Source: Omnitrophica WOR_2 bacterium RIFCSPHIGHO2_02_FULL_48_11
GTDB taxonomy: Bacteria; Omnitrophota; Gorgyraeia; Zapsychrales; GWA2-47-8
NCBI GenBank assembly: GCA_001805615.1
Contig: MHGP01000035.1
Coordinates: 10,222 to 62,743, forward strand
Direction: 5' to 3'
DNA: 52,522 bases
Below, piece after piece: positions 25,607 through 51,150 of the stretch. Under the pieces are notes generated by a model. That model had not been told where the DNA came from and made no database searches. It was given only the letters and a program-made list of their open reading frames with translations. The position numbers and the translations under genes are program-made. The first letter of the stretch is position 1; each line of letters opens with the position of its first letter.

Positions 25607-25613
25607 CTTGTGT

Positions 25614-25652: not shown

Positions 25653-27020
25653 TCACTGGCCAGTGTTTTGTTCCAAATAATTACCCACACGGGCACTGGT
25701 CTTACCTCTCTCACTTATGGCGTATTGTTTTAGGGACGGCTCCGCCACAACTTCTACCAATTGCGCCCTGCGTAATTTTTCAGCGATAAGGGACAGCTCC
25801 TGGACCGGCACATTGATCTTCTCGCTGATGTCGATTAAATCAAGTTTCCCGTCCGCGTAGGCAATAAAATCCATCATGTTCCTGACTTGCTCAGCCGACC
25901 CCTTGGCGCTGATTGTCGGATAGAGGCCTCTTTTCCCCAGCTGCGGCTCACCCAAACACGTCATTTTATATTTTTTATTTTTTTCCAATGCCTCGATACA
26001 CTCTTGCAGCACTGCAAATGATCCGGCCAATCCTTCCGCCGAAATAAGTTTTAAATTATCCAAGGACGTATGATATTCGGGATACGTTCCATATTTGCTG
26101 CGCATAATGGAAGCCACCGGCAGGTCAGCTCCGACGGAACAATACTGCCGTTCATCGCTGCCGCGATTCAAAAATGAATACTTAATAAAATCTGGGTGTC
26201 TCAATTTCAACACATTCAGCGCGACCTTGTCCGCCAATGTGTTCCCTAGCCGGGAAGGAAGATACGAATAACAACGCTCATCGCCGACGCAGGTCACATT
26301 AAAACCGGCAATGATGTTTTGTTTCATGTGTTGCAAATTTTTGCTCAGATAAGTGACCGAGCCGATCGTTTCCGGAATAAAAACAATCCGATAGGTATAT
26401 TCCCGCGGTTCACTTAAAAGCCATTTGGCCAGAAACGTGGTGACCACCGGGCCGGAAAGTTCATTATTGGCCATAGAAGGATGGCAAACGTAAGTGGAAA
26501 GAAAAATCTCCTTTTGTGATTGGCCCGGGATGATCAATTCACCATAGGTGAGCGAGCCATCCTTGAGTTCGGAATCGATCACGACTTTATACTTCCCCTT
26601 TTTCAGCTTCTGCCGATCCTTATGCGCCAGGCAAAATCCCCACCGCTCTGCATAATAAGAAGTGACATACGGTATGGCATTGGGTAATTTCTTATCCGAA
26701 TAAAGATGCTCTTGGAGCTCAGCCAGCGTAACGGTTTTATTGACCGGGGTCGCATAACCAACGACGTGGAGGTTATTCTTCTTAAAATCAATGACCTTCT
26801 TTCCCTTGGCATCACTGACATAGGCGTCCTGGATATTCCATTCTTTGGGAACCGTCCAATCAAACACCGGCGTTCCCGACGGGACTTCCTGCACGGTTAA
26901 AGGAATGTGCTCTTGCAATATTTTCAGGGTCGCCCGGACACCGTTTCCCGTAATGCTGCGGCATATCGGGAGCAACCGCTCCGCCAATTTGTACATGGCT
27001 TTTCCTGTCATAGTGTTCAT
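25653..27020 (-). CDS. Aminopeptidase-like (M28-fold, DUF4910-type) polysaccharide-locus protein with C-terminal winged-helix segment
   Basis: 455 aa. The layout and segments such as YRIVFIPETIGS match my recollection of the COG4310-type family that accompanies AAC(3)-like genes in glycan loci. Unverified without an HMM search. Confidence 0.55.
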   Translation of the reverse strand: MNTMTGKAMYKLAERLLPICRSITGNGVRATLKILQEHIPLTVQEVPSGTPVFDWTVPKEWNIQDAYVSDAKGKKVIDFKKNNLHVVGYATPVNKTVTLAELQEHLYSDKKLPNAIPYVTSYYAERWGFCLAHKDRQKLKKGKYKVVIDSELKDGSLTYGELIIPGQSQKEIFLSTYVCHPSMANNELSGPVVTTFLAKWLLSEPREYTYRIVFIPETIGSVTYLSKNLQHMKQNIIAGFNVTCVGDERCYSYLPSRLGNTLADKVALNVLKLRHPDFIKYSFLNRGSDERQYCSVGADLPVASIMRSKYGTYPEYHTSLDNLKLISAEGLAGSFAVLQECIEALEKNKKYKMTCLGEPQLGKRGLYPTISAKGSAEQVRNMMDFIAYADGKLDLIDISEKINVPVQELSLIAEKLRRAQLVEVVAEPSLKQYAISERGKTSARVGNYLEQNTGQ

Positions 27021-36376: not shown

Positions 36377-38107
36377 TTAAGCGCCGGCCGCTAAAATTTC
36401 ACGGAAGCGATCGATCCCGCGATCATCATTGTATTCATCATATTCCCGCAGCAATTCAGCCGGGATGGAGCTGCACGGATTTTCATTTCCTATCAATATT
36501 TTCTTGATCATGTTCAATAATTTCTCGGGATCGGCAAAAACAATTTTATCCTTAAAATGTTTGGCAAAGGGATGGCCGTAACCGACTTCATCCAGATACA
36601 GGCCCTCGATCCCGCAGATGATCGCGATCGTGGATGAGCTGGTCATTCCCTGGCTGACAACGATATCGGCAACTCCGATCGCTTCGATAAAGCAATATTT
36701 CTTCTCATCGAGGATATAAAAATTCGTCGTCCGCTTGATCCCCTGCCGGATCTCCTCAAACTGCGCCTTAAGCGGCCGCGGCAGCTGCTGAAATCTTTCC
36801 GCGGCCTTGGGCTTTATCAGGACGGTCACGTTAGGATTTTCCAAAGCGCATTGATAAGCTGTCCGCCAAAAATTGACAAAATGCTGCGGCGTCATCTCAC
36901 AGATCTCGTCAAATGATTCATCGAAAAATGAAACGACCCGACGGTCATTGGGCAGGCCCAGTTCCGCCAGGACCGACTCCTTCCGCTGGGCCACATCACA
37001 AATGAACCGTTTAAAGACATAACCCGTCGGCACATACGGCGTCGACAAACCCTGCACGTGGATCTTCCCCCATGTCAAATATTTGTCGCAGCCTAAATTC
37101 GAAACGGTCCAGCGGTTCGATTCAATCGAGAAATCAGACCAATGCATCAGGTAATACCGTGTCCCATAATTCTCACAGATGATCGCCTCGGCGATATGGT
37201 TGGAGGCAAAATAACAATGCCCCAGCTCCGAGGTCACGCGATAGTGCGAGAAGATCCGCTCATAGGCTAAGGCATAAAACGCAAAATATAAAAATATGGC
37301 CCGGAATAGCGTAAAATTCCCAGACGGCAATTCTTTCCATAAAAGACCGCTGCTTGCCAAGATGTATCGGGGAATAACCCTTCCGAAAAACGGCTTCACA
37401 CCCAACGACAACTTTTGCAGATTAAAGTGTGCGTAAGGAGACCGCCGGGCGTCCTCATAGCCTTTAAGCCGTGCCCCGGTTTTTGGGATGCTCCTGGAGA
37501 AAAGCAAAAATGATTTTTGCTTTATCTTTTCGCTATCAACCAAAAAATCATCATGAAAGTAATATCCGCCCACGTCATACAAACCCCAAACCGCTTCCCG
37601 CATCACCTTATAAGACTCTCGCGGACCCCGCAGAGTCAAACCGTTTTTCAAACTGAAAGCTAAACAAAACAAAATGTTCCAAAAAATTTGGGCCAGGCGC
37701 TCCCCAAGACCCGACCGTTTCCATTGAACCTTGGGCGAGATCTTAAATTTAGCGGCAAAGCGTTCAACGGCAAACCGGTGGATCGCATTATCCTCTAAAA
37801 CAACCGGGCCGGCAGAATCCGCCAGACTGTCGTTGAGAAGATTGGAAAGCTTGATCATGTATTCCAAAACACAGCGGCTGGCAAAGAAATTAAAACGGTG
37901 CGTTTGAAAACTCTTATTCAACCCCTTCACAAAATCCGATTCCAGGATTTTGTTCGTTTGAATAAACTCATCGGCGAGCTTTGGGATCTCATCGTTGAGC
38001 CAGCGGAAATACTCGGGATTGAGACGTTCCCGGTTGGCCGCATCAAAAGGCAGAAAGAACCGTGTCAGGATCTCGCCAAAAATAATTTTTTTAAAAATAT
38101 CGGTCAT
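36377..38107 (-). CDS. Hypothetical 576-aa protein with GT-B-like C-terminal domain (candidate nonulosonic acid transferase)
   Basis: Long ORF embedded in the pse genes with no named family recognised. The C-terminal ~190 aa (VVSFFDESF..VLIKPK..SQGMTSSSTIA..GYGHPF) parallels the 404-aa protein at 40289..41503. Confidence 0.4.
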   Translation of the reverse strand: MTDIFKKIIFGEILTRFFLPFDAANRERLNPEYFRWLNDEIPKLADEFIQTNKILESDFVKGLNKSFQTHRFNFFASRCVLEYMIKLSNLLNDSLADSAGPVVLEDNAIHRFAVERFAAKFKISPKVQWKRSGLGERLAQIFWNILFCLAFSLKNGLTLRGPRESYKVMREAVWGLYDVGGYYFHDDFLVDSEKIKQKSFLLFSRSIPKTGARLKGYEDARRSPYAHFNLQKLSLGVKPFFGRVIPRYILASSGLLWKELPSGNFTLFRAIFLYFAFYALAYERIFSHYRVTSELGHCYFASNHIAEAIICENYGTRYYLMHWSDFSIESNRWTVSNLGCDKYLTWGKIHVQGLSTPYVPTGYVFKRFICDVAQRKESVLAELGLPNDRRVVSFFDESFDEICEMTPQHFVNFWRTAYQCALENPNVTVLIKPKAAERFQQLPRPLKAQFEEIRQGIKRTTNFYILDEKKYCFIEAIGVADIVVSQGMTSSSTIAIICGIEGLYLDEVGYGHPFAKHFKDKIVFADPEKLLNMIKKILIGNENPCSSIPAELLREYDEYNDDRGIDRFREILAAGA

Positions 38108-38108
38108 A

Positions 38109-39275
38109 CTACGAGCGAACCTTTCTGTACTGCTGAATGATCTTTTCAGTGACGGCGATCACGCGTTTTACATCGGCCGTTGACATTTTCGGAAAAAGCG
38201 GCAAGGTCACTGTTTCCTCATAATAATTTTCCGCGTTAGGACAACTCCCTCTCGCGTATCCTAACTTCTGATAAAACGGCTGATAATAGATCGGGATATA
38301 ATGCACATTCACTAAGATCCCCTGCCGGCGATATTCCTCAAAGATGGTTTTTCGCGGTACGGAAAATTTATTACGCTTAAACATGAGCACATAAATATGC
38401 TGCGCGGATCTGACTTGCGGCGCATCCGGCAAAAATCGCACCTCGTCATAGCGGCTGAAGGCCTTGTTATAAGCAGCGGCAATTTCTCGCCGGCGTTTGA
38501 GAAATTTATTTAATTTGGGCAGTTGACTTAAACCCAACGCGCACTGCATATCCGTCAGGCGGTAATTGAACCCCAGATCCTGCATTTCATAGTACCAACC
38601 GCCGTCATTCCCGGTTAATTGATTGGGATCGCGGGTAATACCGTGGGTGCGCAAGCGCAAAAGTTTTTTGTAAAAATGATCATTATTCATAACCACCGCG
38701 CCGCCTTCCGCCGTCGTAATATGTTTGACCGCGTGAAAACTTAAAGTTGTCATATCGGCAAATCTTCCGGAACCGATCTTTGTTCCCTCATACGTCGCGC
38801 CCAAAGCGTGCGAGGCATCTTCGATCAGTAACAATTTATTTTTCTGCGCGATCTCGTATATTTTCTTTAGATCCGCCGGCTGGCCGGCAAAATCCACCGG
38901 AATGATTGCCTTGGTTTTACCGGTAATTTTCTTTTCGATCTCGGCCGGGTCGATATTGATCGTATCTTCCCGGATATCCGCAAAGATAGGCTTTCCCCCG
39001 CAATAAAGCACACAGTTCGCCGAAGCCACAAAACTGATCGGGCTCGTGATGACTTCATCCCCGGATTGAATGCCGGCAGCCAAACAGGCCAAGTGCAACG
39101 CGGCGGTCCCGTTGGCGACCGATACCGCATATTTCGCGTCACAGCATTTGGCAACGGCGCGATCAAAAAGCTCAACGGTCGGCCCTTGCGTTAAAAAGTT
39201 CGATTTTAAAATTTTCGTAACGCTGCGAATGTCTTTTTGATCAATCCACTGTATCGCGTAAGGAATAGTTTTCAT
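38109..39275 (-). CDS. pseC: UDP-4-amino-4,6-dideoxy-N-acetyl-beta-L-altrosamine transaminase
   Basis: IPYAIQWIDQKDI..LTQGPTV..NGTAALHLA and the PLP-lysine segment SFHAVKHITTAEGG. Adjacent to pseB. Confidence 0.85.
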   Translation of the reverse strand: MKTIPYAIQWIDQKDIRSVTKILKSNFLTQGPTVELFDRAVAKCCDAKYAVSVANGTAALHLACLAAGIQSGDEVITSPISFVASANCVLYCGGKPIFADIREDTINIDPAEIEKKITGKTKAIIPVDFAGQPADLKKIYEIAQKNKLLLIEDASHALGATYEGTKIGSGRFADMTTLSFHAVKHITTAEGGAVVMNNDHFYKKLLRLRTHGITRDPNQLTGNDGGWYYEMQDLGFNYRLTDMQCALGLSQLPKLNKFLKRRREIAAAYNKAFSRYDEVRFLPDAPQVRSAQHIYVLMFKRNKFSVPRKTIFEEYRRQGILVNVHYIPIYYQPFYQKLGYARGSCPNAENYYEETVTLPLFPKMSTADVKRVIAVTEKIIQQYRKVRS

Positions 39276-40255
39276 ATGGTTTTAATGATTTCCTTAAGCT
39301 CGTCCACCGTCAGCCACTGGCTGTTGGTATCGCTCGAATATTTGAAATCTTCCGGCACATCTTTGCCGATCGGATAATTCTCATCGCTCCACCAGTGAAA
39401 TGCCGGCTGAATCACATAACAATTGTCTAATTCTTTGGTATTGCGGGCGTCATCCACCGAGACCATAACTTCATGCAATTTTTCTCCGGGACGGATACCG
39501 ACATTTTTGGTTTTACATTCCGGGGCGATGGCCTTGGCCAGGTCCATAATGTTCATGCTGGGGATTTTCGGAATAAAGATTTCCCCGCCGTGCATTTCTT
39601 CAAAACGGGAGATCACAAAGCGTACCCCCTGCTCGAGTGTAATCCAAAAGCGCGTCATCTTGGGATGCGTGATGGGAAGCACACCTTCTTTCTTTTTATC
39701 AAGAAAAAAGGGAATCACACTCCCGCGACTGCCCACAACGTTGCCGTAACGCACAACCGAAAACCGCGCGCCGGAAATTCCAGAATAAGAATTCGCCGCA
39801 ACAAATAATTTATCCGAACAGAGTTTTGTGGCGCCGTACAGATTGATCGGGTTGCAAGCCTTGTCCGTACTAAGTGCGACAACTTTTTTCACTCCCCTTT
39901 CCAAGGACGCCTCGATAATATTCATCGCACCCAGGATATTGGTCTTGATCGCTTCCGTCGGATTATATTCCATCGCCGGCACCTGTTTAAGGGCTGCGGC
40001 ATGGATGACATAGTCAACATCATGAAACGCGAGCTTTAAACGTTCTTTATCACGCACATCGCCGATAAAAAATCGGATATTCTTATACTGGGCAAATTGC
40101 TGCTGCATATCGAACTGCTTGGCCTCATCGCGGCTGTAAATAATCAATTTTTGGGGACTTAATTCATCCAATACGATTTTGGCGAATTTTTTACCGAAAG
40201 AACCGGTCCCCCCGGTGATTAAAATGGTTTTACCTGTTAACGGACTTTTTTTCAT
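39272..40255 (-). CDS. pseB: UDP-N-acetylglucosamine 4,6-dehydratase (inverting)
   Basis: TILITGGTGSFGKKF, LIIYSRDEAKQFDM, YGATK. This is the typical PseB/FlaA1 signature. GAGGA Shine-Dalgarno 7 nt upstream of the ATG. Confidence 0.9.
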   Translation of the reverse strand: MKKSPLTGKTILITGGTGSFGKKFAKIVLDELSPQKLIIYSRDEAKQFDMQQQFAQYKNIRFFIGDVRDKERLKLAFHDVDYVIHAAALKQVPAMEYNPTEAIKTNILGAMNIIEASLERGVKKVVALSTDKACNPINLYGATKLCSDKLFVAANSYSGISGARFSVVRYGNVVGSRGSVIPFFLDKKKEGVLPITHPKMTRFWITLEQGVRFVISRFEEMHGGEIFIPKIPSMNIMDLAKAIAPECKTKNVGIRPGEKLHEVMVSVDDARNTKELDNCYVIQPAFHWWSDENYPIGKDVPEDFKYSSDTNSQWLTVDELKEIIKTI

Positions 40256-40288
40256 ATTTCCTCACTTCTCATTGCTGTTAAAAAAATT

Positions 40289-41503
40289 TTAAGTAGCTGC
40301 GTATTCTTTTTTTGTACTTTCCTCTAAAGGAACAATTTTGTCAAAGGCATCAGCCACGATGTCCGCATAAAATTTTCGCGGTGTGCTCGTTCTCTTGATA
40401 AACGTTTCCTCGTACTGCCGGTACTTATCCTCATCGATGTGAGACACGGTACTAGCATCCAGGTTCTCAATCGACCGCACGTCCTGCGGTATTTGAGCAA
40501 ATTGCTTAGCGGCAGCCGCAATAACTCTCCCATAAAACTGCCCTTTGACCTTCATCGGCAGCAAGAAGATCAACGGCTTACGGAACATCACGGCAAAATT
40601 CATCGAGGTGCTGCCATGGCACAAAACACATTTGGCGTGCGCGACCAGATCGACCGTCTTTCCTTTGAGCACCATTCTTCCTTCAAATAAATTCGGCATA
40701 TTTTCATAAGGGGCCTTGGGATGGGCGGCAATCACAACCTTAAGCTGCAATTTCTGCTCTATGATCTTAAGCAGGCGGTTCACCTCGTCATAATATTCTT
40801 CCGGGGAGCGAAACGGATTCTGGGGACCGTCCGTCAGATGAAAATCCGGATGGAACGGCCAGCCCTCATCCAAAAACACAACATAATCCCCCTCCACAAG
40901 CGGCTTTTCTCGCCGCTGCTGATGCGCCAGATACAGATCATAATCTAACGTGTGTGCCCAAATGATTCTTGTCCGCTCATCGGTTTGCGGAAATTTATGC
41001 TGATCATAAAGCCCGCCGGCGATCACGAATCGCGCGGGTACGGATCCGGAACGGGTTGATAAAAATTTCTTTTGCAGCCGTTCTGTGAGCCGTTGCCAGG
41101 ACCGCCGTGACAATGCCATCCGCCACAGCGGTTGATACCGTACTTTGGGAATGCTGTTGGCGCAAAAATTCCCATGAATGACATTATTATCCTTTAAATA
41201 TTTTTCCAAGAGAGGCTCGGTCTCCGGACGGCCGACAAAATCAACCAAAAACCAGCGCCGCGCTTTCCTTTCCGCAAAGAATTGCTCAATGTCCGCCGGA
41301 GATTTCACGACGCAAACATGTTCATAGGCCCACGGCTGAATTAAACCTCTTTCCATGACCTCGGGATTGAGCAAAAAAGTCACATCCAAAAAGCTCACCT
41401 GATAGCCCCGCGCGCGAAACCGTTCGACCCCCAGCCGGTCGTAATCGCGCTTCATTAAAGGCAGCGGAATAATAAAACAAATTTCTCGTATGGCCATATG
41501 CAA
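40289..41503 (-). CDS. Hypothetical 404-aa GT-B-like protein with DEG / HP / STS motifs (candidate nonulosonic acid transferase)
   Basis: VVFLDEGWPFHPD (res 208-220), VVIAAHPKAP (res 256-265), CHGSTSMNF (res 295-303). It lies between the two NulO pathways. Confidence 0.4.
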   Translation of the reverse strand: MHMAIREICFIIPLPLMKRDYDRLGVERFRARGYQVSFLDVTFLLNPEVMERGLIQPWAYEHVCVVKSPADIEQFFAERKARRWFLVDFVGRPETEPLLEKYLKDNNVIHGNFCANSIPKVRYQPLWRMALSRRSWQRLTERLQKKFLSTRSGSVPARFVIAGGLYDQHKFPQTDERTRIIWAHTLDYDLYLAHQQRREKPLVEGDYVVFLDEGWPFHPDFHLTDGPQNPFRSPEEYYDEVNRLLKIIEQKLQLKVVIAAHPKAPYENMPNLFEGRMVLKGKTVDLVAHAKCVLCHGSTSMNFAVMFRKPLIFLLPMKVKGQFYGRVIAAAAKQFAQIPQDVRSIENLDASTVSHIDEDKYRQYEETFIKRTSTPRKFYADIVADAFDKIVPLEESTKKEYAAT

Positions 41504-41506
41504 TCC

Positions 41507-42715
41507 TTACGCTATCTCTGCCTTGATCGGTTGCCGCTCATCATAAATACGCACCAGCGCCGCAGACACCTTTTGCACATCCGCTTCGGCAATGTGCGAA
41601 TATAGCGGCAAGCTCAAAATATTATCGGCCACCGACTTTGTCGTCTTTAACGTCAGGGCCGGGTTATTCCGGTAATCCGCAAAGGCTTTTTGTTCATGCA
41701 CCGGCGGATAAAAATATTTCTTAACAATGATGTTTTCTGCCGTCAGGGCCCTATACAGCTGATCACGGCTTAGGCCAAACTTCTTTGCATCGATCAGGAT
41801 GGAAAAATCTTTAAAACTGCTGCGGCTCCCGGCGGCGATCTTTTGAAAGCTGATACCCGGCAAATCCGCCAGCAATTTCTTGTACAATTGGGCGATACGA
41901 TTACGCTGCGCGACATTCTTTTCTAAATCCTTAAGACTCTCGATGCCCAGCAACGCATGAAACTCGCTCATGCGGGAATTAAAACCGGAAAAAACACTGT
42001 CGTAATCGCCGGAATCACCGTAATTGCGGCCCACCCGAAGCTGTCTGGCCAGATCCCCATCATTGGTCGCAACGATCCCGCCCTCGCCGGAGGTCAAAAG
42101 TTTCGTCGGACTGAGGCTAAAGACTTCCGCGTCGCCGAATCCGCCGATATTTTTCCCCTGATACTGCGAGCCGAATCCATGCGCCGCGTCAAAGATCAGT
42201 TTTAAACGATGCTTCTTGGCAATTTTTTCAAGCGCGCTGATATCGGCCGGATTTCCAAAGATATGCACGCCCAAGATCGCCGACGTTTGCGGGGTGATCG
42301 CCTTCTCCACCTGCGCGGGGTCAATGTTGTACGTCTCCGGCAGGCAGTCCACAAACACGGGCTTGAGATTGTTCCACACCAGCGCATGGGCCGTGGCATG
42401 AAACGTAAAGCTCGGCAAGATCACTTCGCCTTTCAATTTTAAGATCTTAAACGTCAGCATGAGTCCCGAGGTACAGCTGCTCACCGCCACCGCTTCTTTA
42501 ACCCCGAGATAATTTGCCACCTGTTTTTCAAATTCCTTAACATAGCCGGCGTTGGTGATCATGCCGCTTTCCAAAATTTGCGTGTATTGGCTGGTCAATT
42601 TGGCGATCGACGGGATCGTGGGCTTGGTGATCGGCAACGGCTGCGCGAAGGCAGGCTGCCCCCCTAAGATCGCTGCAGAGTTTACCGGAGGAACTTTCGT
42701 CTGTGTTTTACTCAT
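41507..42715 (-). CDS. DegT/DnrJ/EryC1/StrS-family PLP-dependent sugar aminotransferase
   Basis: 402 aa with the PLP-lysine segment FSLSPTKLLTSGEGG and typical family layout. Confidence 0.85.
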   Translation of the reverse strand: MSKTQTKVPPVNSAAILGGQPAFAQPLPITKPTIPSIAKLTSQYTQILESGMITNAGYVKEFEKQVANYLGVKEAVAVSSCTSGLMLTFKILKLKGEVILPSFTFHATAHALVWNNLKPVFVDCLPETYNIDPAQVEKAITPQTSAILGVHIFGNPADISALEKIAKKHRLKLIFDAAHGFGSQYQGKNIGGFGDAEVFSLSPTKLLTSGEGGIVATNDGDLARQLRVGRNYGDSGDYDSVFSGFNSRMSEFHALLGIESLKDLEKNVAQRNRIAQLYKKLLADLPGISFQKIAAGSRSSFKDFSILIDAKKFGLSRDQLYRALTAENIIVKKYFYPPVHEQKAFADYRNNPALTLKTTKSVADNILSLPLYSHIAEADVQKVSAALVRIYDERQPIKAEIA

Positions 42716-44097
42716 TTGTTATACTCCACGTTGTAATATTTACGATCGTTGACGTCTTTAATTTCATTTTTCTCAATCGCGCGTTTAATGCGCAGGACCG
42801 ACTTCTCCAGATCCTGATCGGCTTTATAGCGCAAAAATTTTTCGATCCTTGAAAAGGAAACCAGATAGTTGCGCGGGTCATTGTTGGAATCCTCCACGAC
42901 CAATTGGGCCTCAGGCACGCAGCTATGGACCTTCTGAGCGATCTGAATGATCTGATAATTTTGCCGGCTTGATCCGACATTGAAGACATTCCCTTTGATC
43001 TTATCCACCGGCGCTTTTAAACACTTGATATACGCATCCGCCGCATCCTCAACATGCAAAAGCGGCCGCCACTGTTTCCCGCCGTTAAAAACCAAGATCT
43101 TTTTTTCAGTCACGGCGGTCTTGGTCATCGTATTGACCACGAGATCAAAGCGCATCCGCGGCGAATAACCGTACAGTGTGCTCATCCGTAAGATCGTCGG
43201 AGAAAAATTTTCGTCCTCGAGGCTTAAGATCCCTTCTTCGGCCTGGATCTTGGAACGCGCGTAAAGCGAAACCGGATTGAGCGGCGAATTTTCTTTCAAC
43301 TCCTGATCCCCGTCCATAACGCCGTACACACTGCAGGTCGAGGCATAAATGAACCGGTTGATCTGATGATATTTGCAGGCCTCGGCCAAAACCTTGTTCG
43401 CCAAATAATTTGTTTCGATGGCGGATTCGGGTTTCTCCTGGCAGGCCGGATCACCGACCACGGCGGCCAGATTAATGACCGCATCGACGCCTTCCAGGGC
43501 CTTGACCAGCGTCGGGATATTGCGCATATCGCCTTCAATCAGCTCAAACCCTTTTTGCCCGATCAATCCCTCGACCGGCCCAGCACCGAACATGAGAAGG
43601 TCCAAGACCCGCACACGAAAACCGTCCGCCAAAAGTTTTCGCACCAAGATCGATCCTAGGTAGCCGGCTCCTCCCACCACCAAGACATGACGATCCGCGT
43701 GATGTTTCTTTCTCTTGGGAAATTGTTCCTCCATCAATTCCGAACATAACGCCAAACGCTCCGGCTGCCCCTCTTCATCAAGCACCAGAATATAACGGCT
43801 ATCCGGCATGCGGCTCAACAATTCCTTTATCTTGGCGCGGACAACTTGGGAATTGCTTAAATCTTTAGGATTAAGAATAACCGGATTAGGATTAAGAATT
43901 TTATTCACTAAACTTTTAATATCCTGACCCTTCAAGATACTTTTGCGTATTTCGCTGTCGCTGACCACTCCGGCAAAACGCTTTTTCTCATCAACGACAT
44001 ACGCCACCCGCAGTCCAGAGTGGTCAATAGCCCGCATTGCGTCCTTGACCGTGGCTTTTTCCGAAATAAGGGCACTTTTTAAAATTTTATTTTTCAT
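42712..44097 (-). CDS. CBS-pair domain fused to NAD-dependent sugar dehydratase/epimerase (extended SDR)
   Basis: The N-terminal ~125 aa looks like a CBS pair (..ATVKDAMRAIDHSGLRVAYVVDEKKRFAGVVSDSEIRK..). This is followed by HVLVVGGAGYLGSILV and YARSK (YxxxK). Confidence 0.8.
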   Translation of the reverse strand: MKNKILKSALISEKATVKDAMRAIDHSGLRVAYVVDEKKRFAGVVSDSEIRKSILKGQDIKSLVNKILNPNPVILNPKDLSNSQVVRAKIKELLSRMPDSRYILVLDEEGQPERLALCSELMEEQFPKRKKHHADRHVLVVGGAGYLGSILVRKLLADGFRVRVLDLLMFGAGPVEGLIGQKGFELIEGDMRNIPTLVKALEGVDAVINLAAVVGDPACQEKPESAIETNYLANKVLAEACKYHQINRFIYASTCSVYGVMDGDQELKENSPLNPVSLYARSKIQAEEGILSLEDENFSPTILRMSTLYGYSPRMRFDLVVNTMTKTAVTEKKILVFNGGKQWRPLLHVEDAADAYIKCLKAPVDKIKGNVFNVGSSRQNYQIIQIAQKVHSCVPEAQLVVEDSNNDPRNYLVSFSRIEKFLRYKADQDLEKSVLRIKRAIEKNEIKDVNDRKYYNVEYNK

Positions 44098-44738
44098 TTT
44101 TTTCGCTTAATCACTTTCGCCGGCACACCGGCAACCGTAACACGTTCCGGAACGGAAGCGATCACAACCGCGCCGGCTCCGACCATCGTGTTCTTTCCGA
44201 TAGAAACATTTTGGATCACGGCGGCGCCTGTCCCCACATAAGAACAACTGCCTACCCGCACCGTTCCGGCCAAATGCGCGCCCGGCCAAATATGGCAAAA
44301 AGCCTCAAGGTAACAGTCATGATCAACGCTGGCACCGGTATTCACCACCGCCCCGTCTTCCAAGATCGCGGAAGGATTGATCACCGCTCCGGCCATCACC
44401 ACCACTCCGCGACCTAGCCGCGCATGGCGCGACACAACCGCCCGCGGATGCACGGCGGAGATCACTTGAAAGCCGAGCGCCGTCGCTTTTTGAAAGATGG
44501 TTTTACGTATTTCATTATTACCGATACCTAACGCAATTTTTACGGCCCGCTTATTCTTGATCTTTTCCAAATACGCGGCATTTCCTAAAATGCGGCAGCC
44601 GTTGATGCTTTGGTTGACCTTCTTTTTATCATCATCGATAAAACCTAACACCGGAATTTTTGATTCCGCTAAAATGTCGAGGATGACCTTGCCGTGTCCT
44701 CCCGCGCCCCAGATAATAACTTTTGTTGGTTTAGTCAT
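44094..44738 (-). CDS. NeuD/PglD-family sugar N-acetyltransferase (left-handed beta-helix)
   Basis: N-terminal KVIIWGAGGHGKVILDIL..GFIDDD, followed by hexapeptide repeats (..GAVINPSAILEDGAVVNTGASV..VGTGAAVIQNVSIGKNTMVGAGAVV). Confidence 0.85.
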   Translation of the reverse strand: MTKPTKVIIWGAGGHGKVILDILAESKIPVLGFIDDDKKKVNQSINGCRILGNAAYLEKIKNKRAVKIALGIGNNEIRKTIFQKATALGFQVISAVHPRAVVSRHARLGRGVVVMAGAVINPSAILEDGAVVNTGASVDHDCYLEAFCHIWPGAHLAGTVRVGSCSYVGTGAAVIQNVSIGKNTMVGAGAVVIASVPERVTVAGVPAKVIKRKK

Positions 44739-44742
44739 ATTT

Positions 44743-45891
44743 TTAGTAGGTGATCTTTTTCTGTATTAATCGGTTATTTAAATTGACCTTCCCTAAAAAT
44801 TTTACGATCCGGCCGCTGGCCTTTCCGTCACCATAAGGATTGCGGCACTGCTTGACACGCCGGCGGAACTTTTGATCATGGATCACTTTTTGGATCACGC
44901 GCGCAATGATCCGCTTCTCATGCGGCACATCGATCACATTGACACTGCGCTCTCTGCCTTCTTGACGGCAGCCGATATTAATCACCGGCAAACGGAACGA
45001 CGCCGCTTCAATGATCCCGCTGCTGGAATTTCCTATCAGCACCGATGCTATTTTTAAAAGGCCCAAATAATCGGCATGCGGGATACTTTTATAATGTTTC
45101 AGGAACAGATATTTTTTAAATTTACCCAAAACCTTGATCATCGCCCGCCCGCCGGCATCCGCATTCGGATAAACCACCACAGTTTGCAACTTTAGATCAA
45201 CAATGGCCTGCAAGGTCGACTGGATCTGCTTTCCCGCTTCCTTGATTTGTGAATGCACCGGATGCTGCACCAAAAGACCCAACGGCTGGCGTGGATCAAG
45301 GCGATATTTTTTTAATAATGTTTGTTTAGGCATGACCTGGTCATTTAAGATCCGATCCAGCGCCGGAGCACCCGCGACCATGACACGCCACGGCTCTTCC
45401 CCCAATCTCAGGATCCGCTCTCTCGCTTTTTGGGTAGCTGGAAAATGAATATGCGCGAGTTTGGTGATCGCATGGCGGACAACCCCGTCCACATGACCCG
45501 AGACCTCGCCGCCGTGAATATGCACAACGGGAATGTTCATATAATTCGCCGCCACCGCGGCCGCCAGGACCTCGCCCCGGTCGCCCAAAGTCAAAATAAA
45601 ATCCGGTCTCAACCGTTGAAAGCATCGCACAAATTTGGAGGTGCCGCGCCCCACACCATCGGCCATCGCCCCACCTTTATCCTGCGCATGACTGATGTCG
45701 ATCTTTGCGTAAACCGAAAACCCGTCGCGTTCAATTTCTTTCACGGTATAACCAAACTCCGTCATCAAATGCATTCCCGTCGCCACCACATACAAATTGA
45801 AATGCTTCGAACTCCGGATCGCCTCCATCACCGGAGCCAAGATCCCGTATTCCGCCCGCGTTCCCGTGATCACACACACTTTACGTTTCAT
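44743..45891 (-). CDS. neuC: UDP-N-acetylglucosamine 2-epimerase (hydrolysing), NeuC/LegG-like
   Basis: KVCVITGTRAEYGILAPVMEAI and VVHIHGGEVSG. I place the start at MKRKVCV.., giving an ATGA overlap with the neuB-like stop (45888..45891). Confidence 0.85.
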   Translation of the reverse strand: MKRKVCVITGTRAEYGILAPVMEAIRSSKHFNLYVVATGMHLMTEFGYTVKEIERDGFSVYAKIDISHAQDKGGAMADGVGRGTSKFVRCFQRLRPDFILTLGDRGEVLAAAVAANYMNIPVVHIHGGEVSGHVDGVVRHAITKLAHIHFPATQKARERILRLGEEPWRVMVAGAPALDRILNDQVMPKQTLLKKYRLDPRQPLGLLVQHPVHSQIKEAGKQIQSTLQAIVDLKLQTVVVYPNADAGGRAMIKVLGKFKKYLFLKHYKSIPHADYLGLLKIASVLIGNSSSGIIEAASFRLPVINIGCRQEGRERSVNVIDVPHEKRIIARVIQKVIHDQKFRRRVKQCRNPYGDGKASGRIVKFLGKVNLNNRLIQKKITY

Positions 45892-46937
45892 TGCACGATA
45901 TCCCATGAAAAAATTTGATCTTTACGGATTATAGTTTTGGCCCTTTTCCCGGTCAGCCGCTGTAGCCATTTCGGCTCGATCCCGGTTCCCGGCCGCTTGA
46001 CCGTCAGCATATCCGACGTGATTGTGACCCCTTTTTCAATATCACACGCCGCCACAATACTCTTGCGCGCGACCTTCTGAATCGCGATCTCCGACGGATT
46101 AGGTTTCTTAATACCGTTGCCTCTGGCTTTCTCAACATTACGAATCGCCTCGACCATTTTCTGAAACTCCTGCGGCTCCAGCGAAGTTTTATGGTCCGGC
46201 CCCGGCAAATTTTTATCCAGTGTCAGATGTTTTTCAATGACGCACGCGCCCAGCGCAACCGCCGCAACGCTGATCTCAATTCCCAATGTATGGTCCGAAT
46301 ACCCCACCGCGACATCAAATTTATTTCTTAAAGTCAGCATCGCATTCAAATTCACTTCTTCATATTTGGTCGGATAATTCGACGTGCAATGCAGCAAAAT
46401 CAGCTCCCTGTTCCCCTCCTTATGAATCGTCTTCACCGCTTCAACAACCTCCTCCAGCGACGACATGCCCGTCGACAAGATGATCGGCTTTTTAAACTGT
46501 GCCACTTGCTGCAACAAAGGGACATTGGTCAATTCTCCAGAACCGATCTTATACGCCGGCAATCCCAGCAACGCGAGGAACTCCGCGCTGATCCGATCGA
46601 ACGGCGTTGACAAAAACATGATCCCCTTTTTCTGGGAATACTCAAATAATTCGGAAAATTGATCCTCGGAAAGTTCCAGTTTTTTAAGCATGGCGTATTG
46701 GGAAGGATGCGCATCGGTCTTTTTTTGATATTCCGCTTTCGGCGCGTTCGCCGTCACTAATTCCTCAGCGCGAAAGGTTTGAAATTTTATCGCGTCCGCA
46801 CCGATCCTTTTTGCACTATCCACTAACTTCTTAGCCATGGCGATCTGACCGTTGTGATTCACCCCTGCCTCAGCGATGATAAAGACCGGACATTGTTCCG
46901 CGATCACACGGTTCCCTATTTTAATTCCCTTAGCCAT
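45888..46937 (-). CDS. neuB: N-acylneuraminate/legionaminate synthase, NeuB/LegI-like
   Basis: CPVFIIAEAGVNHNGQIAMAKKLV, GADAIKFQTF, and a SAF-like C-terminus. 349 aa. Confidence 0.9.
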   Translation of the reverse strand: MAKGIKIGNRVIAEQCPVFIIAEAGVNHNGQIAMAKKLVDSAKRIGADAIKFQTFRAEELVTANAPKAEYQKKTDAHPSQYAMLKKLELSEDQFSELFEYSQKKGIMFLSTPFDRISAEFLALLGLPAYKIGSGELTNVPLLQQVAQFKKPIILSTGMSSLEEVVEAVKTIHKEGNRELILLHCTSNYPTKYEEVNLNAMLTLRNKFDVAVGYSDHTLGIEISVAAVALGACVIEKHLTLDKNLPGPDHKTSLEPQEFQKMVEAIRNVEKARGNGIKKPNPSEIAIQKVARKSIVAACDIEKGVTITSDMLTVKRPGTGIEPKWLQRLTGKRAKTIIRKDQIFSWDIVQ

Positions 46938-47532
46938 GGTGTTTTGACTTTCCCAAAAGATAGATCGTCTCGTTATTCTTTAAAACCTCTTTTTCAAGGC
47001 TGAAAAGCGTATTAAAAACCTCTCTCAGTTCTTCAAATGACTTCACAAAACCGATGGGATCCGGTGGTAAATACAGCGTGATATAAACATAGTTGGCTTT
47101 CGCCGCGGCTTTCTGCAAAACTTCTTCCCAATTTTGTAAATAAGACAGAACCTCTAGCATCACGATGGCGTCCCATCTTTGCGGAGCACTTAAAGCTTCT
47201 TCGGCGGTCGCGGTGGAGAAACGAATCCCCGGGTACCGTTGTTCAGCTTTAGCGATCGCTGTTTGCGAAATATCAACACCCATCACAGAATCGGCAATCG
47301 TTGCGAGTTGATTTGTAAAAGCCCCTTTGCCGCAACCGATGTCCAGAATGGAAGAGAACCTGTAATTTTTCAAGAGCTCCCAGGAACCTTGCTTGGTCGG
47401 ATGCCGCAGATCCTCCTGAAACCAGCTGTCAAAACCTTCTCGCTCCTCGTTGGCGTACATCTCTTCAAAGCGGCCCACGAATTTACGGTTTTCGGTATCA
47501 AAAACATATTTATGATACGGTTGCTGTGTCAT
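46930..47532 (-). CDS. Class I SAM-dependent methyltransferase
   Basis: Motif I ILDIGCGKGAFTNQL, 200 aa. Located between the neuA-like and neuB-like genes. Confidence 0.75.
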   Translation of the reverse strand: MTQQPYHKYVFDTENRKFVGRFEEMYANEEREGFDSWFQEDLRHPTKQGSWELLKNYRFSSILDIGCGKGAFTNQLATIADSVMGVDISQTAIAKAEQRYPGIRFSTATAEEALSAPQRWDAIVMLEVLSYLQNWEEVLQKAAAKANYVYITLYLPPDPIGFVKSFEELREVFNTLFSLEKEVLKNNETIYLLGKSKHHG

Positions 47533-48169
47533 GTTCTACACCCGCGTGTTGTTTCAACAAAACTTGCTCCGCCAGCCAGAAATCAAACTCCTCATCGATC
47601 TCGATATTTTCTTCGCGGCCGGTAAAAACGTTGCCTGCCTTTTTTCCGTAGAGCGTTCCTTTTTTGATCAACGACGATTTCACCACATACACATTGCCGT
47701 CGTCGTAAAAAAATCCCTTTAACTCCTGCCGGCGCTTGGTGTAACTGCCGTATTCCATAAATTTGCAGATAAACCCGGTCGCCAAATTATCACACTTCTT
47801 TTTTTCAAACTCTCTGATACATTCATCGATCAATCCGGCCCGGCGGATCGGTGAGGTCGGCTGCAAGATCACAACATTCTCCGCATCGATCTTAGTTAAT
47901 ACCTGCTGCAAGGCCGACAAGGTCGTCGCGGTATCCGTTGCCAATTTCTTCGGCCGGTCGATCACCTCGCACCCGAACGTTCGTGCCACTTGAGCGATCT
48001 CGGCATCTTCCGTCGAGACCACGCACCGGTCGAGCAATTTCGCTTGCCGCGCCGCTTCCATCGTCCAGGCGAGCAAAGGTTTGCCGGCGATCATTTTGAT
48101 ATTTTTCCGCGGGATCCCTTTGCTTCCTCCGCGCGCCGGGATCACGGCTAAGTACGGGATACGAGACAT
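47510..48169 (-). CDS. neuA: Acylneuraminate cytidylyltransferase, NeuA/LegF-like
   Basis: LAVIPARGGSKGIPRKNIKMIAGKPLL. I place the start at the internal Met (MSRIPYL..). The upstream part of the ORF overlaps the preceding gene in another frame. Confidence 0.85.
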   Translation of the reverse strand: MSRIPYLAVIPARGGSKGIPRKNIKMIAGKPLLAWTMEAARQAKLLDRCVVSTEDAEIAQVARTFGCEVIDRPKKLATDTATTLSALQQVLTKIDAENVVILQPTSPIRRAGLIDECIREFEKKKCDNLATGFICKFMEYGSYTKRRQELKGFFYDDGNVYVVKSSLIKKGTLYGKKAGNVFTGREENIEIDEEFDFWLAEQVLLKQHAGVEHDTATVS

Positions 48170-49344
48170 TCTTTTTCTACTTCCTGAGCGGTGTCGCGCA
48201 CCGCTGCAATAACCTGGTTGATACGTTCTTCCGGCATCAAAACCATGATTGGCAGCGCGATCGCCCGCCGCAGATAACCGGTTGACTGGCTCCAAACTTT
48301 CTCCAGATCTTTTCCTTTAAATTCCGAAAAGTTATAAAAAATCTGTGTCCATGTACCGGCAAAATGCCAATCGATCGCGTCGGGCAAATTTTTCGTCCCA
48401 AAGCCTTTGTCTTTCAACTTTTTTGCAAAAAGCGACGCCTTCTCTCTCGATGGCATGAAAAAGATCAGCGTGTCGCCCGCATCACCCTCGGGGTTGGGGA
48501 TCTCCCGGAACTCGATGCCCGGAATATTCTTGATCCCTTCCTTGATCTTGCGCTTATTGTCGCGCTGTTTTTGCAGGATATAATCCAATTTCTTTAACTG
48601 GGCTAAGCCGATCGCGCCGTGCAGTTCATTGGCTTTATAATTGAAGCCCCAAGTCGTGCGCGTGTCTTCGCCGCGGGGCACCTTGGGATTTTGTTCATGG
48701 CCGTGATCCGAATATTCCCGTGCCTTCAAATAAATTTTTTCATCATTGGTAACAACCAGCCCGCCTTCGCCGGTCGTGATGATCTTACCGATATCCAAAC
48801 TGTAGATCCCGACGGCGCCAAGCGTTCCCAGATATTTTCCTTTATACGTCGCGCCCATGGCCTGAGCACTGTCTTCCACGATCGGCAAACCATGCTTTTG
48901 CGCGATCGCCTGGATCTCCTCCATCTTGGCAGCGACTCCGGCCATGTATACCGGCACGATCGCTTTAGTTTTTTTCGTGATCTTTTTTTCCAGATCTTTG
49001 GGGTCCATATTCAACGATTTATCCACCTCCGTCACAACGGGAACAGCGCCTAATTCCAAGATCGCCTCGATGGTCGCGATAAACGTAAAACTCTGCGTGA
49101 TGACCTCGTCCCCGGCCTTGACCCCGACGGCAAGCAAGGCAAGCTTCAAAGCAGCGGTCCCATTGCAAACACACAAGACATGCTTCACACCGATCTTCTT
49201 AGCAACGGCATTTTCAAAATCATTCACCCGAAAAATGTTCTGCCGCTTGGCATCTAATCCGTAGCGGTATAAAACGCCTCCCTTATCAAAAAGGTCGGCC
49301 ACCGCCTGTTTTTCTTCTTCTCCGATCAACTCAAACCCTGGCAT
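48148..49344 (-). CDS. DegT/DnrJ/EryC1/StrS-family PLP-dependent aminotransferase (second copy)
   Basis: 398 aa with the PLP-lysine segment YSLDIGKIITTGEGG. Confidence 0.85.
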   Translation of the reverse strand: MPGFELIGEEEKQAVADLFDKGGVLYRYGLDAKRQNIFRVNDFENAVAKKIGVKHVLCVCNGTAALKLALLAVGVKAGDEVITQSFTFIATIEAILELGAVPVVTEVDKSLNMDPKDLEKKITKKTKAIVPVYMAGVAAKMEEIQAIAQKHGLPIVEDSAQAMGATYKGKYLGTLGAVGIYSLDIGKIITTGEGGLVVTNDEKIYLKAREYSDHGHEQNPKVPRGEDTRTTWGFNYKANELHGAIGLAQLKKLDYILQKQRDNKRKIKEGIKNIPGIEFREIPNPEGDAGDTLIFFMPSREKASLFAKKLKDKGFGTKNLPDAIDWHFAGTWTQIFYNFSEFKGKDLEKVWSQSTGYLRRAIALPIMVLMPEERINQVIAAVRDTAQEVEKECLVSRT

Positions 49345-50506
49345 AAGTTCCCCCCGGATGAAATATTTTTGTCATCATCTTTCTTACATCTTCTTTCGTA
49401 ATTTCCATAGGATTCTGGTCGATCGCCGCCTTTAAGACATCGTATTGCTCGATGAGGAATTCCGCATCCTTATCGGTCAATTTATAGGCAGCGATGGCCT
49501 TGGGCACATCGAGCTTGGTCATTAATTCCGCAATCCGTTTTACGAATTCGCTGTTTTTTTCTTTCACCGCAAGTTTTTTGTCAGCGCCTTCCATGAGATC
49601 ATAAAGGGCGGCATAATCCTGATACCCTTTTTCGACATTAAGGCGCGTGATCTCCGGCAGAAAGATCGCCCCGGCATAGCCGTGGGGAACTTTATAGACC
49701 GCACCCAGCGGATACGAAAACGCCCCCGACGGGCCGGAGCCTGCATTGATCAAGGCGGCGCCCGCCAAATACGCGCCCAGCGCCAAATGACCGCGGATCT
49801 CGATGTCTTGAGGGTGATCCAGGACTTTATTTAAATTATTATAAAGCAGGCGAAAGGCCTCTGTGGAATACATCCGGGAAACCGGGGTGTGATTTTTGTG
49901 CACATAACTTTCTAACGTATGGACCAAAGCATCTGCGCCCGAGGAGACGGTGACCGCTTTCGGACACCCGACGGTAAAAAGCGGATCAAGGATCGCCTGC
50001 ACGGGGTAATTGTATTCGGAGTTGATGCCCAATTTTTTCTTTTGCTTCGCATCCGTAAAGACCGCGTTGTAAGTGACTTCACTTCCGGTCCCCGCGGTCG
50101 TTGGGATCGCCACAACCGGCAAAGGACGGTGCTGCAATTTAGGAAAACCACGGTAGGAGATCGCTTCTCCCGGATTGGTCACCAGCGTCGCGACACCCTT
50201 CGTTAAATCCAACGTGCTGCCCCCGCCGATCCCCACGAGACATTCGAATCCCTGATTTAAGAACGGTTTTTTAAACGCCTCCAGGAAATCATAGTCGGGC
50301 TCGATGGCATCATTCTCAAACGTTTGATAGGCGACCTGCGCCGCCTTGATACTTTCCAAAGCCTTTCTCGTCTGCGGATGCGCTACGATACCGCGATCCA
50401 AAATAATCCCGACTTTTCTATAACCTAACTCCGTCAGGATCTTCCCCAGCTGTTCGCTCGTCGCTGCGCCGAACACCAAATGTGTTTTCAGTTTAAAATT
50501 AAACAT
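49331..50506 (-). CDS. Iron-containing (group III) alcohol dehydrogenase
   Basis: VGIGGGSTLDLTKGVA and downstream His-rich metal-site segments (..ALVHTLESYVH..). I place the start at MFNFKLK.. (internal Met of the ORF). Confidence 0.85.
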   Translation of the reverse strand: MFNFKLKTHLVFGAATSEQLGKILTELGYRKVGIILDRGIVAHPQTRKALESIKAAQVAYQTFENDAIEPDYDFLEAFKKPFLNQGFECLVGIGGGSTLDLTKGVATLVTNPGEAISYRGFPKLQHRPLPVVAIPTTAGTGSEVTYNAVFTDAKQKKKLGINSEYNYPVQAILDPLFTVGCPKAVTVSSGADALVHTLESYVHKNHTPVSRMYSTEAFRLLYNNLNKVLDHPQDIEIRGHLALGAYLAGAALINAGSGPSGAFSYPLGAVYKVPHGYAGAIFLPEITRLNVEKGYQDYAALYDLMEGADKKLAVKEKNSEFVKRIAELMTKLDVPKAIAAYKLTDKDAEFLIEQYDVLKAAIDQNPMEITKEDVRKMMTKIFHPGGTYARV

Positions 50507-51062
50507 TTTTCTCCATGAGGACATTGTCTTTGGAAAGTTCATGAATAAGGTCAACTGTTTTAACCGGATAGCCGGGATCGACAATAACATTTTCCCGGCA
50601 GATAAACACGACACCCCTAAAATCCGCGGGCGGAAGTTCTTCGGTGTAGGCCAATTTATAATCCGTTAATCCCAGATCTTTAAAGACCATTTCCGTTAGG
50701 ATCGCAAAGTCTGATTTCCCCAGAATGACAAAATTCCTCTCCCCCTCTTGATAAAGCGCGGCAATGAGTTGCTTGGCCTGGTCTTTGATAAGGCCGATGG
50801 CATTGAGTGTATTCAGGGTGTATTTGATGGATTTGCGCATTTTTTCGGCAAATCCTTTTGGGGTAAGAATATATTGAACTTTACGTTGATTGAGTTGCGT
50901 GATGCGGATATAACCCTTGGCCACGAGGCGACGGATGAGCATATTCGTTTGCCCCAGGGAAAGCTGCAAATGGCGGGAAAGGTCGCGCTGATTAGAGCCT
51001 AACTTCTGTCCGATAATATTAACGAGCTCAAACTCGCGTTCGTCCAAAACTTCTTTAGGCAT
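50499..51062 (-). CDS. MarR-like winged-helix transcriptional regulator (EPS-associated type) with extra ~85-aa C-terminal domain
   Basis: N-terminal NQRDLSRHLQLSLGQTNMLIRRLVAKGYIRITQLNQRKVQYILTPKGFAEK matches my recollection of the EPS-associated MarR family. It is the first gene after promoter P1. Confidence 0.65.
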   Translation of the reverse strand: MPKEVLDEREFELVNIIGQKLGSNQRDLSRHLQLSLGQTNMLIRRLVAKGYIRITQLNQRKVQYILTPKGFAEKMRKSIKYTLNTLNAIGLIKDQAKQLIAALYQEGERNFVILGKSDFAILTEMVFKDLGLTDYKLAYTEELPPADFRGVVFICRENVIVDPGYPVKTVDLIHELSKDNVLMEKNV

Positions 51063-51100: not shown

Positions 51101-51117
51101 TGTTCAATAATTGAACA
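51101..51117. promoter_or_regulatory. 17-bp perfect palindrome TGTTCA-N5-TGAACA (candidate operator, copy 1)
   Basis: Plus strand 51101..51117 reads TGTTCAATAATTGAACA. It lies 5 nt downstream of the -10 hexamer of P1 and 39 nt upstream of the regulator start codon. Confidence 0.5.
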
Positions 51118-51122
51118 TATAA

Positions 51123-51150
51123 ATTATAAAGAATTGCCTAAAAATGTCAA
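51123..51150 (-). promoter_or_regulatory. Consensus sigma70-type promoter P1: TTGACA-N16-TATAAT
   Basis: Minus strand reads TTGACA (51150..51145), a 16-nt spacer tttttaggcaattctt, then TATAAT (51128..51123). It sits in the 118-bp AT-rich gap upstream of the regulator gene. Confidence 0.6.

Follow-up and report, generated by a model that had tools for sequence, protein, structure and literature searches.

What acts at a perfect palindrome that directly follows a perfect bacterial promoter, and to what effect? The question is raised by a stretch of 52,522 nt from Omnitrophica WOR_2 bacterium RIFCSPHIGHO2_02_FULL_48_11 (assembly GCA_001805615.1, contig MHGP01000035.1, positions 10,222 to 62,743; hereafter, the window), in which the promoter P1 and the 17-bp palindrome O1 precede the gene of a 187-aa winged-helix regulator at the head of a surface-glycan gene cluster. 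We find that the same module occurs a second time in the window, and that its palindrome is conserved at the head of the regulator's operon in related genomes and, together with shorter relatives of the regulator, in other phyla. On the strength of these comparisons, we consider it probable that the regulator is a dimeric autorepressor that occludes its own very strong promoter, the palindrome being its operator.

Two promoter-palindrome modules in the window

P1 and O1 were noticed in a first-pass annotation made from the sequence alone, which placed TTGACA-16-TATAAT at 51150..51123 and, 5 nt further on, a palindrome at 51117..51101. Both readings are exact (Table 1). On the minus strand, the arms of O1 are TGTTCA (51117-51112) and TGAACA (51106-51101), and the 5 nt between it and the -10 element of P1 are TTATA. 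Transcription from P1 is predicted to start at about 51119-51110, and O1 spans this expected +1, as the annotation had claimed; the orthologous sites described below likewise lie at -10/+1. The claim that the first gene after P1 encodes a winged-helix regulator also holds, the ATG at 51062 being downstream of P1 and O1 on the minus strand and the 187-aa open reading frame (ORF) scoring above the threshold of a Pfam helix-turn-helix family, HTH_24.

Table 1. Coordinates of the promoters, candidate operators, regulator gene and operons in the window
Feature	Position	Strand	Basis and remarks
-35 element of P1, TTGACA	51145..51150	minus	read directly
-10 element of P1, TATAAT	51123..51128	minus	read directly; 16-nt spacer from -35
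Candidate operator O1, TGTTCA-ATTAT-TGAACA	51101..51117	none	28.4 bits, best in the window
187-aa regulator	50499..51062	minus	winged helix, long helix and C-terminal alpha/beta domain; putative binder of O1 and O2
Operon 1 past the regulator	25653..50506	minus	23 tightly packed genes; ORFs and Pfam
-35 element of P2, TTGACA	25636..25641	minus	12 nt past the stop of the preceding gene
-10 element of P2, TATAAT	25614..25619	minus	read directly; 16-nt spacer
Candidate operator O2, TGTTCA-TATTT-TGAACA	25590..25606	none	25.4 bits, second in the window
Operon 2	50..25520	minus	at least 23 genes, continues to the window edge; Pfam

The second module, P2 with O2, occupies 25590..25641. Here 7 nt separate the -10 element from the palindrome, the predicted start lies at about 25609-25601, and the ATG of a 249-aa methyltransferase gene (25520) follows O2 after 69 nt. 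The annotation had judged this recurrence unlikely to be due to chance, and the counts agree: perfect palindromes with these 12 specified bases occur twice in the 52.5 kb, both times at promoters, with about 0.003 expected (52,506/4^12). Likewise, TTGACA-N16-TATAAT with at most one mismatch is found twice in the window, each time without a mismatch, as compared with 0.34 expected. Measured against the sigma-70 pattern (TTGACA and TATAAT, 16-18 nt apart), P1 and P2 both match at 12 of 12 positions with a spacer of 16 nt. They are the only such promoters in the part of the window covered by our promoter scan (14000-52522), where all other hits match at 10 or fewer of 12 positions and are as frequent as in shuffled sequence. 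The blocks between the conserved elements differ completely between the two sites, and because this intervening sequence is wholly different, the sites do not represent a duplication.

The palindromes were scored with a weight matrix derived from the 76 orthologous sites described below. The third-best hit in the window, at 112-128, reaches 12.9 bits and is a one-mismatch palindrome, TGTCCAGCTTTTGAACA. We considered it as a third operator and rejected it: it falls inside the 703-aa radical SAM/B12 ORF, at the 3' end, with no promoter upstream, and is most likely a chance occurrence.

Conservation across Omnitrophota

For comparison, we used 80 Omnitrophota loci, one per species-level genome and 812 kb in total, chosen solely by the similarity of an encoded protein to the regulator (51-83% identity). 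The pattern YGTTCA-N5-TGAACR occurs 81 times in this DNA, with about 0.2 occurrences expected. At 72 loci, the regulator ORF is preceded by such a site at a distance of no more than 220 bp, which gives 76 sites in all. At 5 further loci, the regulator occupies the second to fourth place in a same-strand operon that has the site at its head. Thus, the site heads the operon of the regulator in 77 of the 80 loci. The GTTCA and TGAAC arms are invariant, and the N5 spacer is at least 80% A/T. The outermost pair is T/A in 58 sites, C/A in 11 and T/G in 5, that is, it changes without compensation. Even in the relative with 83% identity, the sequence between the elements has diverged, so that the elements stand out as a phylogenetic footprint.

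The promoter is conserved together with the palindrome. The combination of TTGACA and TATAAT is present without a mismatch at 50 of the 76 sites and with one mismatch at 16; taken separately, TTGACA is found at 56 and TATAAT at 63. The spacer is 16 nt long in 63 of 74 cases, and the preferred distance between the -35 and -10 elements in these loci is accordingly 16 nt, not 17. Conversely, of 53 perfect TTGACA-16/17-TATAAT promoters in the 812 kb, 52 carry the palindrome downstream. The gap between the -10 element and the palindrome, measured at 74 sites, is -1 nt (TATAA|TGTTCA) in 21, 0 in 9, 1 in 8, 2 in 10, 4-6 in 17 and 8-14 in 9 and, hence, no more than 2 nt in 48. With gaps that range from -1 to +14, the operator therefore always lies over the -10/+1 region.

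Some loci contain two operators, spaced 77-80 bp (L044, 5892/5972; L050, 5894/5974; L054, 4490/4567), 15 bp (L070, 5896/5911) or 124 bp (L039, 3185/3309) apart. The upstream member of the pair has a consensus promoter of its own in L050 and none in L044 and L054. Such pairs may represent tandem promoters; they may also be auxiliary sites that allow cooperative binding or looping.

A LexA/SOS box was considered as well. The Gram-positive Cheo box is CGAAC-N4-GTTCG. In comparison, the half-sites of the present palindrome stand in the opposite order and at a different spacing, and the gene context includes neither lexA nor SOS genes, so this assignment was rejected.

The regulator

The AlphaFold2 model of the regulator (predicted local distance difference test score, pLDDT, 83.5) consists of a three-helix winged helix (residues ~8-66), a long helix (68-105) and a C-terminal domain (110-177) with the topology beta-alpha-beta-beta-beta-alpha. 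In Pfam, residues 6-53 match HTH_24 (PF13412) with 29.4 bits, above the cut-off of 21.9, and the scores for HTH_27 (22.0, cut-off 22.2), MarR (PF01047; 21.0, cut-off 24.6) and MarR_2 (PF12802; 23.1, cut-off 27) fall just below their thresholds. In a Foldseek comparison with the Protein Data Bank (PDB), only the N-terminal half of the model aligns, with MepR, HcaR, FabT, MexR, RosR and AspA, over about 105 residues at E values of about 1e-4 to 1e-3 and with TM-scores to the query of at most 0.42. The model has one helix N-terminal of the helix-turn-helix, and its wing is followed by one long helix only. Of the designation 'MarR-like' given in the first-pass annotation, the winged helix therefore stands; membership in the MarR families does not, given the sub-threshold MarR and MarR_2 scores, a modelled fold composed of wHTH, long helix and extra domain, and TIGR04176 as the nearest curated family, itself below its cut-off.

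TIGR04176 is an NCBIfam family named 'MarR family EPS-associated transcriptional regulator' (EPS, exopolysaccharide). Residues 7-99 of the regulator score 49.4 bits against this model (E 3.8e-13; cut-off 88), and because the score is below the cut-off, we regard the regulator as a long-form relative of the family and not as a member. In size it departs from the single-domain proteins of about 100-115 aa that make up TIGR04176, being 187 aa long with an extra domain. In context it resembles them: it heads a cluster of nonulosonic-acid, heptose and glycosyltransferase genes, and the same surface-glycan context was found in the 80 related loci.

We collected 773 homologues of the regulator. The winged helix-turn-helix (wHTH) is near-invariant in them, with the motifs QR..LS, SLGxxN, KGxI and YILTPxG in the recognition region. 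In the C-terminal domain, the invariant residues are G107, R109, F111, G115, D118, G150, C155 and E157. Modelled alone (residues 98-187, encoded by 50499-50771), this domain reaches a pLDDT of 88.2. Among 1.84 billion sequences, it has 51 representatives at 50% identity, in each case at the C-terminus of a protein of about 180-200 aa that belongs to the family of the regulator. A profile search against the PDB sequences returned nothing significant (winged-helix matches at E 0.024 or worse; residues 74-145 at E 0.39). Readings of the domain as a PglD_N-like or Rex-like nucleotide-binding fold were rejected for lack of any significant structure or sequence match. An identical regulator is present on groundwater metagenome contigs and in the assemblies GCA_001805525.1 and GCA_001003305.1, and the closest named homologues are labelled Omnitrophica or Omnitrophota.

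The palindrome and short-form regulators in other lineages

Metagenome contigs were scanned for TATAA-N0-9-TGTTCA-N5-TGAACA, a pattern that consists of DNA only, and at least 120 loci were recovered. Among the 120 listed, 41 have a homologue of the regulator that starts within 450 nt of the palindrome, and 8 more have, within the same distance, homologues of genes from the window cluster, namely, sugar-modifying enzymes, glycosyltransferases and radical SAM proteins. Many of the regulators adjacent to the palindrome are only about 100 aa long and are true members of TIGR04176 (134-152 bits). A profile search with the short form retrieved at least 8000 relatives, all at E values of 1e-5 or better; one close relative is named Pelagibacteraceae, and many derive from marine samples, Tara among them. 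The DNA-reading motifs QR, SLGxxN, KGxI and YILTPxG are common to the long and the short form, and an hhalign comparison of the two gives a probability of 98.7%.

Selection in the opposite direction, by protein, led to the same site: at TIGR04176 loci chosen in this way, GTTCA-N5-TGAAC is present at the operon promoter in six of six. These are three probable SAR11 loci, Ca. Ferrigenium straubiae, a 3.86-Mb genome and a member of Pseudohongiellaceae. The probable SAR11 loci (marine, AT-rich; contigs L211-L220, for example L218, 4700-4740) have two tandem palindromes, 22-24 bp apart, of which one fills the spacer between the -35 and -10 elements (TTTAC|TGTTCA) and the other overlaps the -10 element (TATAA|TGTTCA) and ends 0-6 nt from the ATG. 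More sites are located in other intergenic regions of the SAR11 glycan clusters (L211, 3204; L215, 2440 and 2463). In Ca. Ferrigenium straubiae, TTGACA-17-TGTAAT-6-CGTTCATTTGCTGAACG stands directly before the gene, and a cluster with PseB-like, DegT, NeuC and NeuB genes follows. In the 3.86-Mb genome and in the Pseudohongiellaceae genome, the palindrome lies upstream of an operon with genes for a NusG paralogue, MarR_EPS and Wza-Wzz, and an ops-like GGCGGTAGCGTG comes after it.

These two proteobacterial EPS loci (L223, 7204-7330; L224, 6308-6440) have the palindrome, then an ops-like GGCGGTAGCGTG in the leader, and then genes for a NusG paralogue, MarR_EPS and wza/wzz. The operon in these loci thus appears to combine repression at the promoter with an RfaH-type device that acts on elongation.

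Leader elements are often needed by long polysaccharide operons, and the ops-like element and NusG paralogue that follow the palindrome in L223 and L224 could be taken to mean that the palindrome itself acts in the transcript, where a 5'-leader hairpin would either stabilise the mRNA or recruit a factor for antitermination. Hairpins of 7 bp are indeed possible at the window sites, with energies of -5 and -8 kcal/mol and z values of about -2.4 to -2.7. These folds are weak, however, and the left arm would remain untranscribed at the 48 sites that begin within 2 nt of the -10 element. In the probable SAR11 loci, one copy of the palindrome is placed between -35 and -10. The arms are invariant and the outer positions uncompensated, which is not the covariation of a paired RNA, and no Rfam family, including the cobalamin riboswitch, has a match in the window. 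Because compensation is absent and the left arm, in most loci, precedes every plausible start, we exclude an RNA hairpin as the functional form, and we regard a role in RNA as exceedingly improbable.

Proposed mechanism and alternatives

We propose that P1 is a near-maximal sigma-70-type promoter whose 17-bp operator, YGTTCA-N5(A/T-rich)-TGAACR, is placed over -10/+1. A dimer of the regulator would bind it with one recognition helix per 6-bp half-site, the centres of the half-sites being 11 bp apart, and the bound dimer would keep RNA polymerase off the promoter, or else prevent open-complex formation or escape. The expected outcome is negative autoregulation of the regulator and of the ~25-kb nonulosonic-acid operon coupled to it. 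The O2 module (25641-25590) would put the distal half of the cluster, with methyltransferases, a glycosyltransferase and the heptose pathway, under the same repressor, so that the two operators could control a cluster of about 51 kb with legionaminic-acid-like, pseudaminic-acid-like, heptose and glycosyltransferase genes. Autoregulation, put forward as the model in the first-pass annotation, thus finds comparative support in the linkage of site and gene in 77 of 80 loci, in the consensus promoter at the site, and in a conservation that concerns sequence and not pairing.

That the regulator itself binds the palindrome is something we infer, and one alternative is that some other protein acting in trans, such as a global regulator with its gene elsewhere, binds there and controls both the regulator gene and the glycan operons, with the adjacent winged-helix protein binding something else. 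O2 does lie 25 kb from the regulator gene, and the 8 pattern loci mentioned above, among the 120 listed, have a homologue of a cluster gene and no regulator homologue within 450 nt. Against such a protein, the site is adjacent to the regulator gene or in the same operon in 77 of the 80 Omnitrophota loci and at all six TIGR04176 loci, which come from three other lineages; the residues with which the family reads DNA match the half-sites in invariance; and no other DNA-binding gene is consistently present in the compared loci. We consider binding by another protein quite unlikely. One candidate encoded within the cluster, the DUF4910-HTH_47 protein (25653-27020, just upstream of O2), was rejected as the binder, since other loci show no linkage between it and the motif.

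The regulator could also bind the palindrome in another capacity, as an activator, a dual regulator, or a roadblock or insulator against read-through. The genes upstream of P1 (52505-51181) encode a CobO-type adenosyltransferase and a B12-type periplasmic binding protein, which points to cobalamin salvage, and a terminator scan found no terminator between them and P1. More generally, in the same scan (14000-52522), no intrinsic terminator that would delimit either operon exceeded the shuffle background. Read-through from the cobalamin genes into O1, or from operon 1 into O2, could thus be what a roadblock would meet, and the auxiliary sites without a promoter of their own in some loci, such as L044 and L054, would fit a function of this kind. 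An activator role is disfavoured by the position of the operator, which lies at -10 to +14 or, in probable SAR11, in the -35/-10 spacer, where a steric repressor would be expected. By established principles of promoter architecture, a promoter that matches the consensus at 12 of 12 positions needs no activator, and such operator positions are not class I or class II activator sites. The site geometry therefore suggests repression rather than activation, and we attach little probability to these other modes of action.

Several observations nevertheless weigh against the proposed model. Three of the 80 loci lack the site; in these, coding sequence reaches the ATG in the available DNA. The distance from the -10 element to the operator spans 15 nt, so that the step that is blocked may vary between genomes. 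The linkage of gene and site would also be compatible with a co-inherited factor as the binder. No ligand was found for the C-terminal domain, in Foldseek it has no fold match in the PDB better than E 0.5, and the short-form relatives do without this domain altogether. The domain, alpha/beta and specific to the family, is a candidate for the sensor that relieves repression. Alternatively, the loop may merely buffer expression from a very strong promoter: because short forms without the C-terminal domain exist, it may act chiefly as a homeostatic clamp.

Gene content of the cluster

The window contains about 49 minus-strand ORFs with hardly any intergenic space. The ATG of the first gene after the regulator, which encodes an iron-containing alcohol dehydrogenase (Fe-ADH), is at 50506 and overlaps the stop of the regulator by 8 nt (50499-50506, ATGTTTAA). 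The regulator is therefore co-transcribed with the pathway, and the overlap implies, at the level of sequence, that the regulator and the biosynthetic genes are coupled in translation. A legionaminic-acid-like set extends over ~50.5-41.5 kb and comprises the Fe-ADH, two DegT aminotransferases, a CMP-transferase, a methyltransferase, NeuB, a NeuC-like epimerase, a PglD-like acetyltransferase and a CBS-dehydratase. It is followed, at 40.3-33.1 kb, by a pseudaminic-acid-like set with a PseB-like Polysacc_synt_2 protein, a PseC-like DegT protein, a PseF-like CMP-transferase, a GNAT protein and NeuB. The region 33121-50506 thus combines two nonulosonic-acid pathways in one operon, with two NeuB paralogues and two or three CMP-transferases. 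The rest of operon 1, down to 25653, encodes an AMP-ligase, a family 2 glycosyltransferase (GT2), a radical SAM protein, an oxidoreductase, an N-acetyltransferase and the DUF4910-wHTH protein, and includes an 86-aa ORF (27886-28146) that is acyl carrier protein-like by sequence and has no Pfam hit.

Part of operon 1 has a counterpart in a probable SAR11 contig: genes for an AMP-dependent ligase, a GFO/IDH/MocA oxidoreductase and an aminoglycoside-3-N-acetyltransferase-like protein, an unusual set found at 27017-33105 in the window, flank the regulator in L211 (1-3171). In the window, the 86-aa ORF lies among them. The shared set suggests glycan-modification modules common to distant phyla.

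Operon 2 encodes methyltransferases, a methyltransferase-GT2 fusion, a YfhO-like membrane protein, a split transketolase, C-methyltransferases and radical SAM/B12 enzymes, along with heptose-pathway proteins (epimerases, HldE-like and GmhA-like). A B12-binding radical SAM enzyme (50-2161) is located at the far end of the glycan cluster from the cobalamin genes. In many other genomes, homologues of the heptose genes at 19895-20899, 18258-19844, 17659-18261 and 16664-17728 stand directly behind the regulator, and those of the PseB-like and PseC-like genes (39272-40255 and 38109-39275) also follow it. Because the heptose genes that lie behind O2 in the window follow the regulator elsewhere, we view O1 and O2 as parts of one conserved surface-glycan regulon.

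Significance

The mechanism is classical, that of a MarR-type autorepressor with its operator over its own promoter. What the comparison adds is a precise predicted operator, YGTTCA-N5-TGAACR, and a coherent regulon, which would consist of nonulosonic-acid, heptose and other surface-glycan operons, for a large family that has no more than an automatically assigned name. The module is conserved with unusual clarity and across phyla, in lineages that have few known regulators and that are not yet manipulable or are famed for how little they regulate (Omnitrophota and probably SAR11). Surface glycans in these lineages are thought to govern interactions with phages and grazers, and the motif can serve as a simple marker for the limits of glycan-island operons in metagenome-assembled genomes. 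For an uncultivated phylum, 52 of 53 perfect promoters in a single regulon is an unusual and quantifiable finding on how promoter strength relates to repression.

A more speculative view, which we regard as possible but doubtful, is that the promoter, the operator and a small wHTH autorepressor form a portable, self-contained cassette that moves with surface-glycan islands between phyla, in this case Omnitrophota, probable SAR11, Gallionellaceae and Gammaproteobacteria. A promoter of maximal strength, held in check by its own repressor, could then provide host-independent, copy-number-buffered expression of acquired glycan clusters, to which the orphan C-terminal domain of the long form might add feedback from a nucleotide-sugar intermediate. 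If true, this would be one of a very small number of regulons with a dedicated transcription factor in genomes as streamlined as those of SAR11 and Omnitrophota.

Comparison with known systems

The closest known relatives are the TIGR04176 proteins, whose winged helix is homologous to that of the window regulator. Both head or sit in surface-polysaccharide clusters with NeuB, CMP-transferase, heptose or Wza/Wzz genes, and both are accompanied by the same GTTCA-N5-TGAAC palindrome at promoters. The window regulator differs in its additional 90-aa alpha/beta domain, its length and its sub-cut-off score, and P1 has one operator, whereas the short forms in probable SAR11 have two tandem operators over the whole core promoter. 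Judged from sequence, the two would nevertheless act alike. A literature search of incomplete coverage found no paper that assigns an operator or a regulon to TIGR04176 or to the long form in Omnitrophota.

The canonical MarR proteins MarR, MepR, MexR, FabT and HcaR are dimeric winged-helix regulators that bind palindromes of 16-20 bp overlapping the -35/-10 region of their own promoters, and the arrangement of P1 and O1 fits this pattern at the level of sequence. The N-terminal half of the window regulator aligns to MepR, HcaR, FabT and MexR, but the six-helix MarR fold dimerises through its N- and C-terminal helices around the winged helix, and the model instead has one N-terminal helix and one long helix after the wing, in which it resembles the archaeal wHTH of the RosR/AspA type more than MarR. 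Its C-terminal domain is extra. Rex, too, combines a wHTH with a small alpha/beta domain that has a glycine-rich beta1-alphaA turn (ILGKSDFA in the window regulator) and with a palindrome that overlaps the promoter. In Rex, the C-terminal domain is a Rossmann sensor, and the Rex box, TTGTGAA-N4-TTCACAA, is unlike the window palindrome. With no significant structural match (3wg9, E 1.8) and no sequence match, the resemblance is an analogy only.

Finally, RfaH with ops, and UpxY, likewise provide very long surface-glycan operons with a dedicated regulatory device at their 5' end. The window contains no NusG paralogue, and no ops element lies near O1 or O2. RfaH/ops and UpxY act on elongation, through the non-template strand or RNA, whereas the device in the window would be a duplex-DNA operator at the promoter itself.

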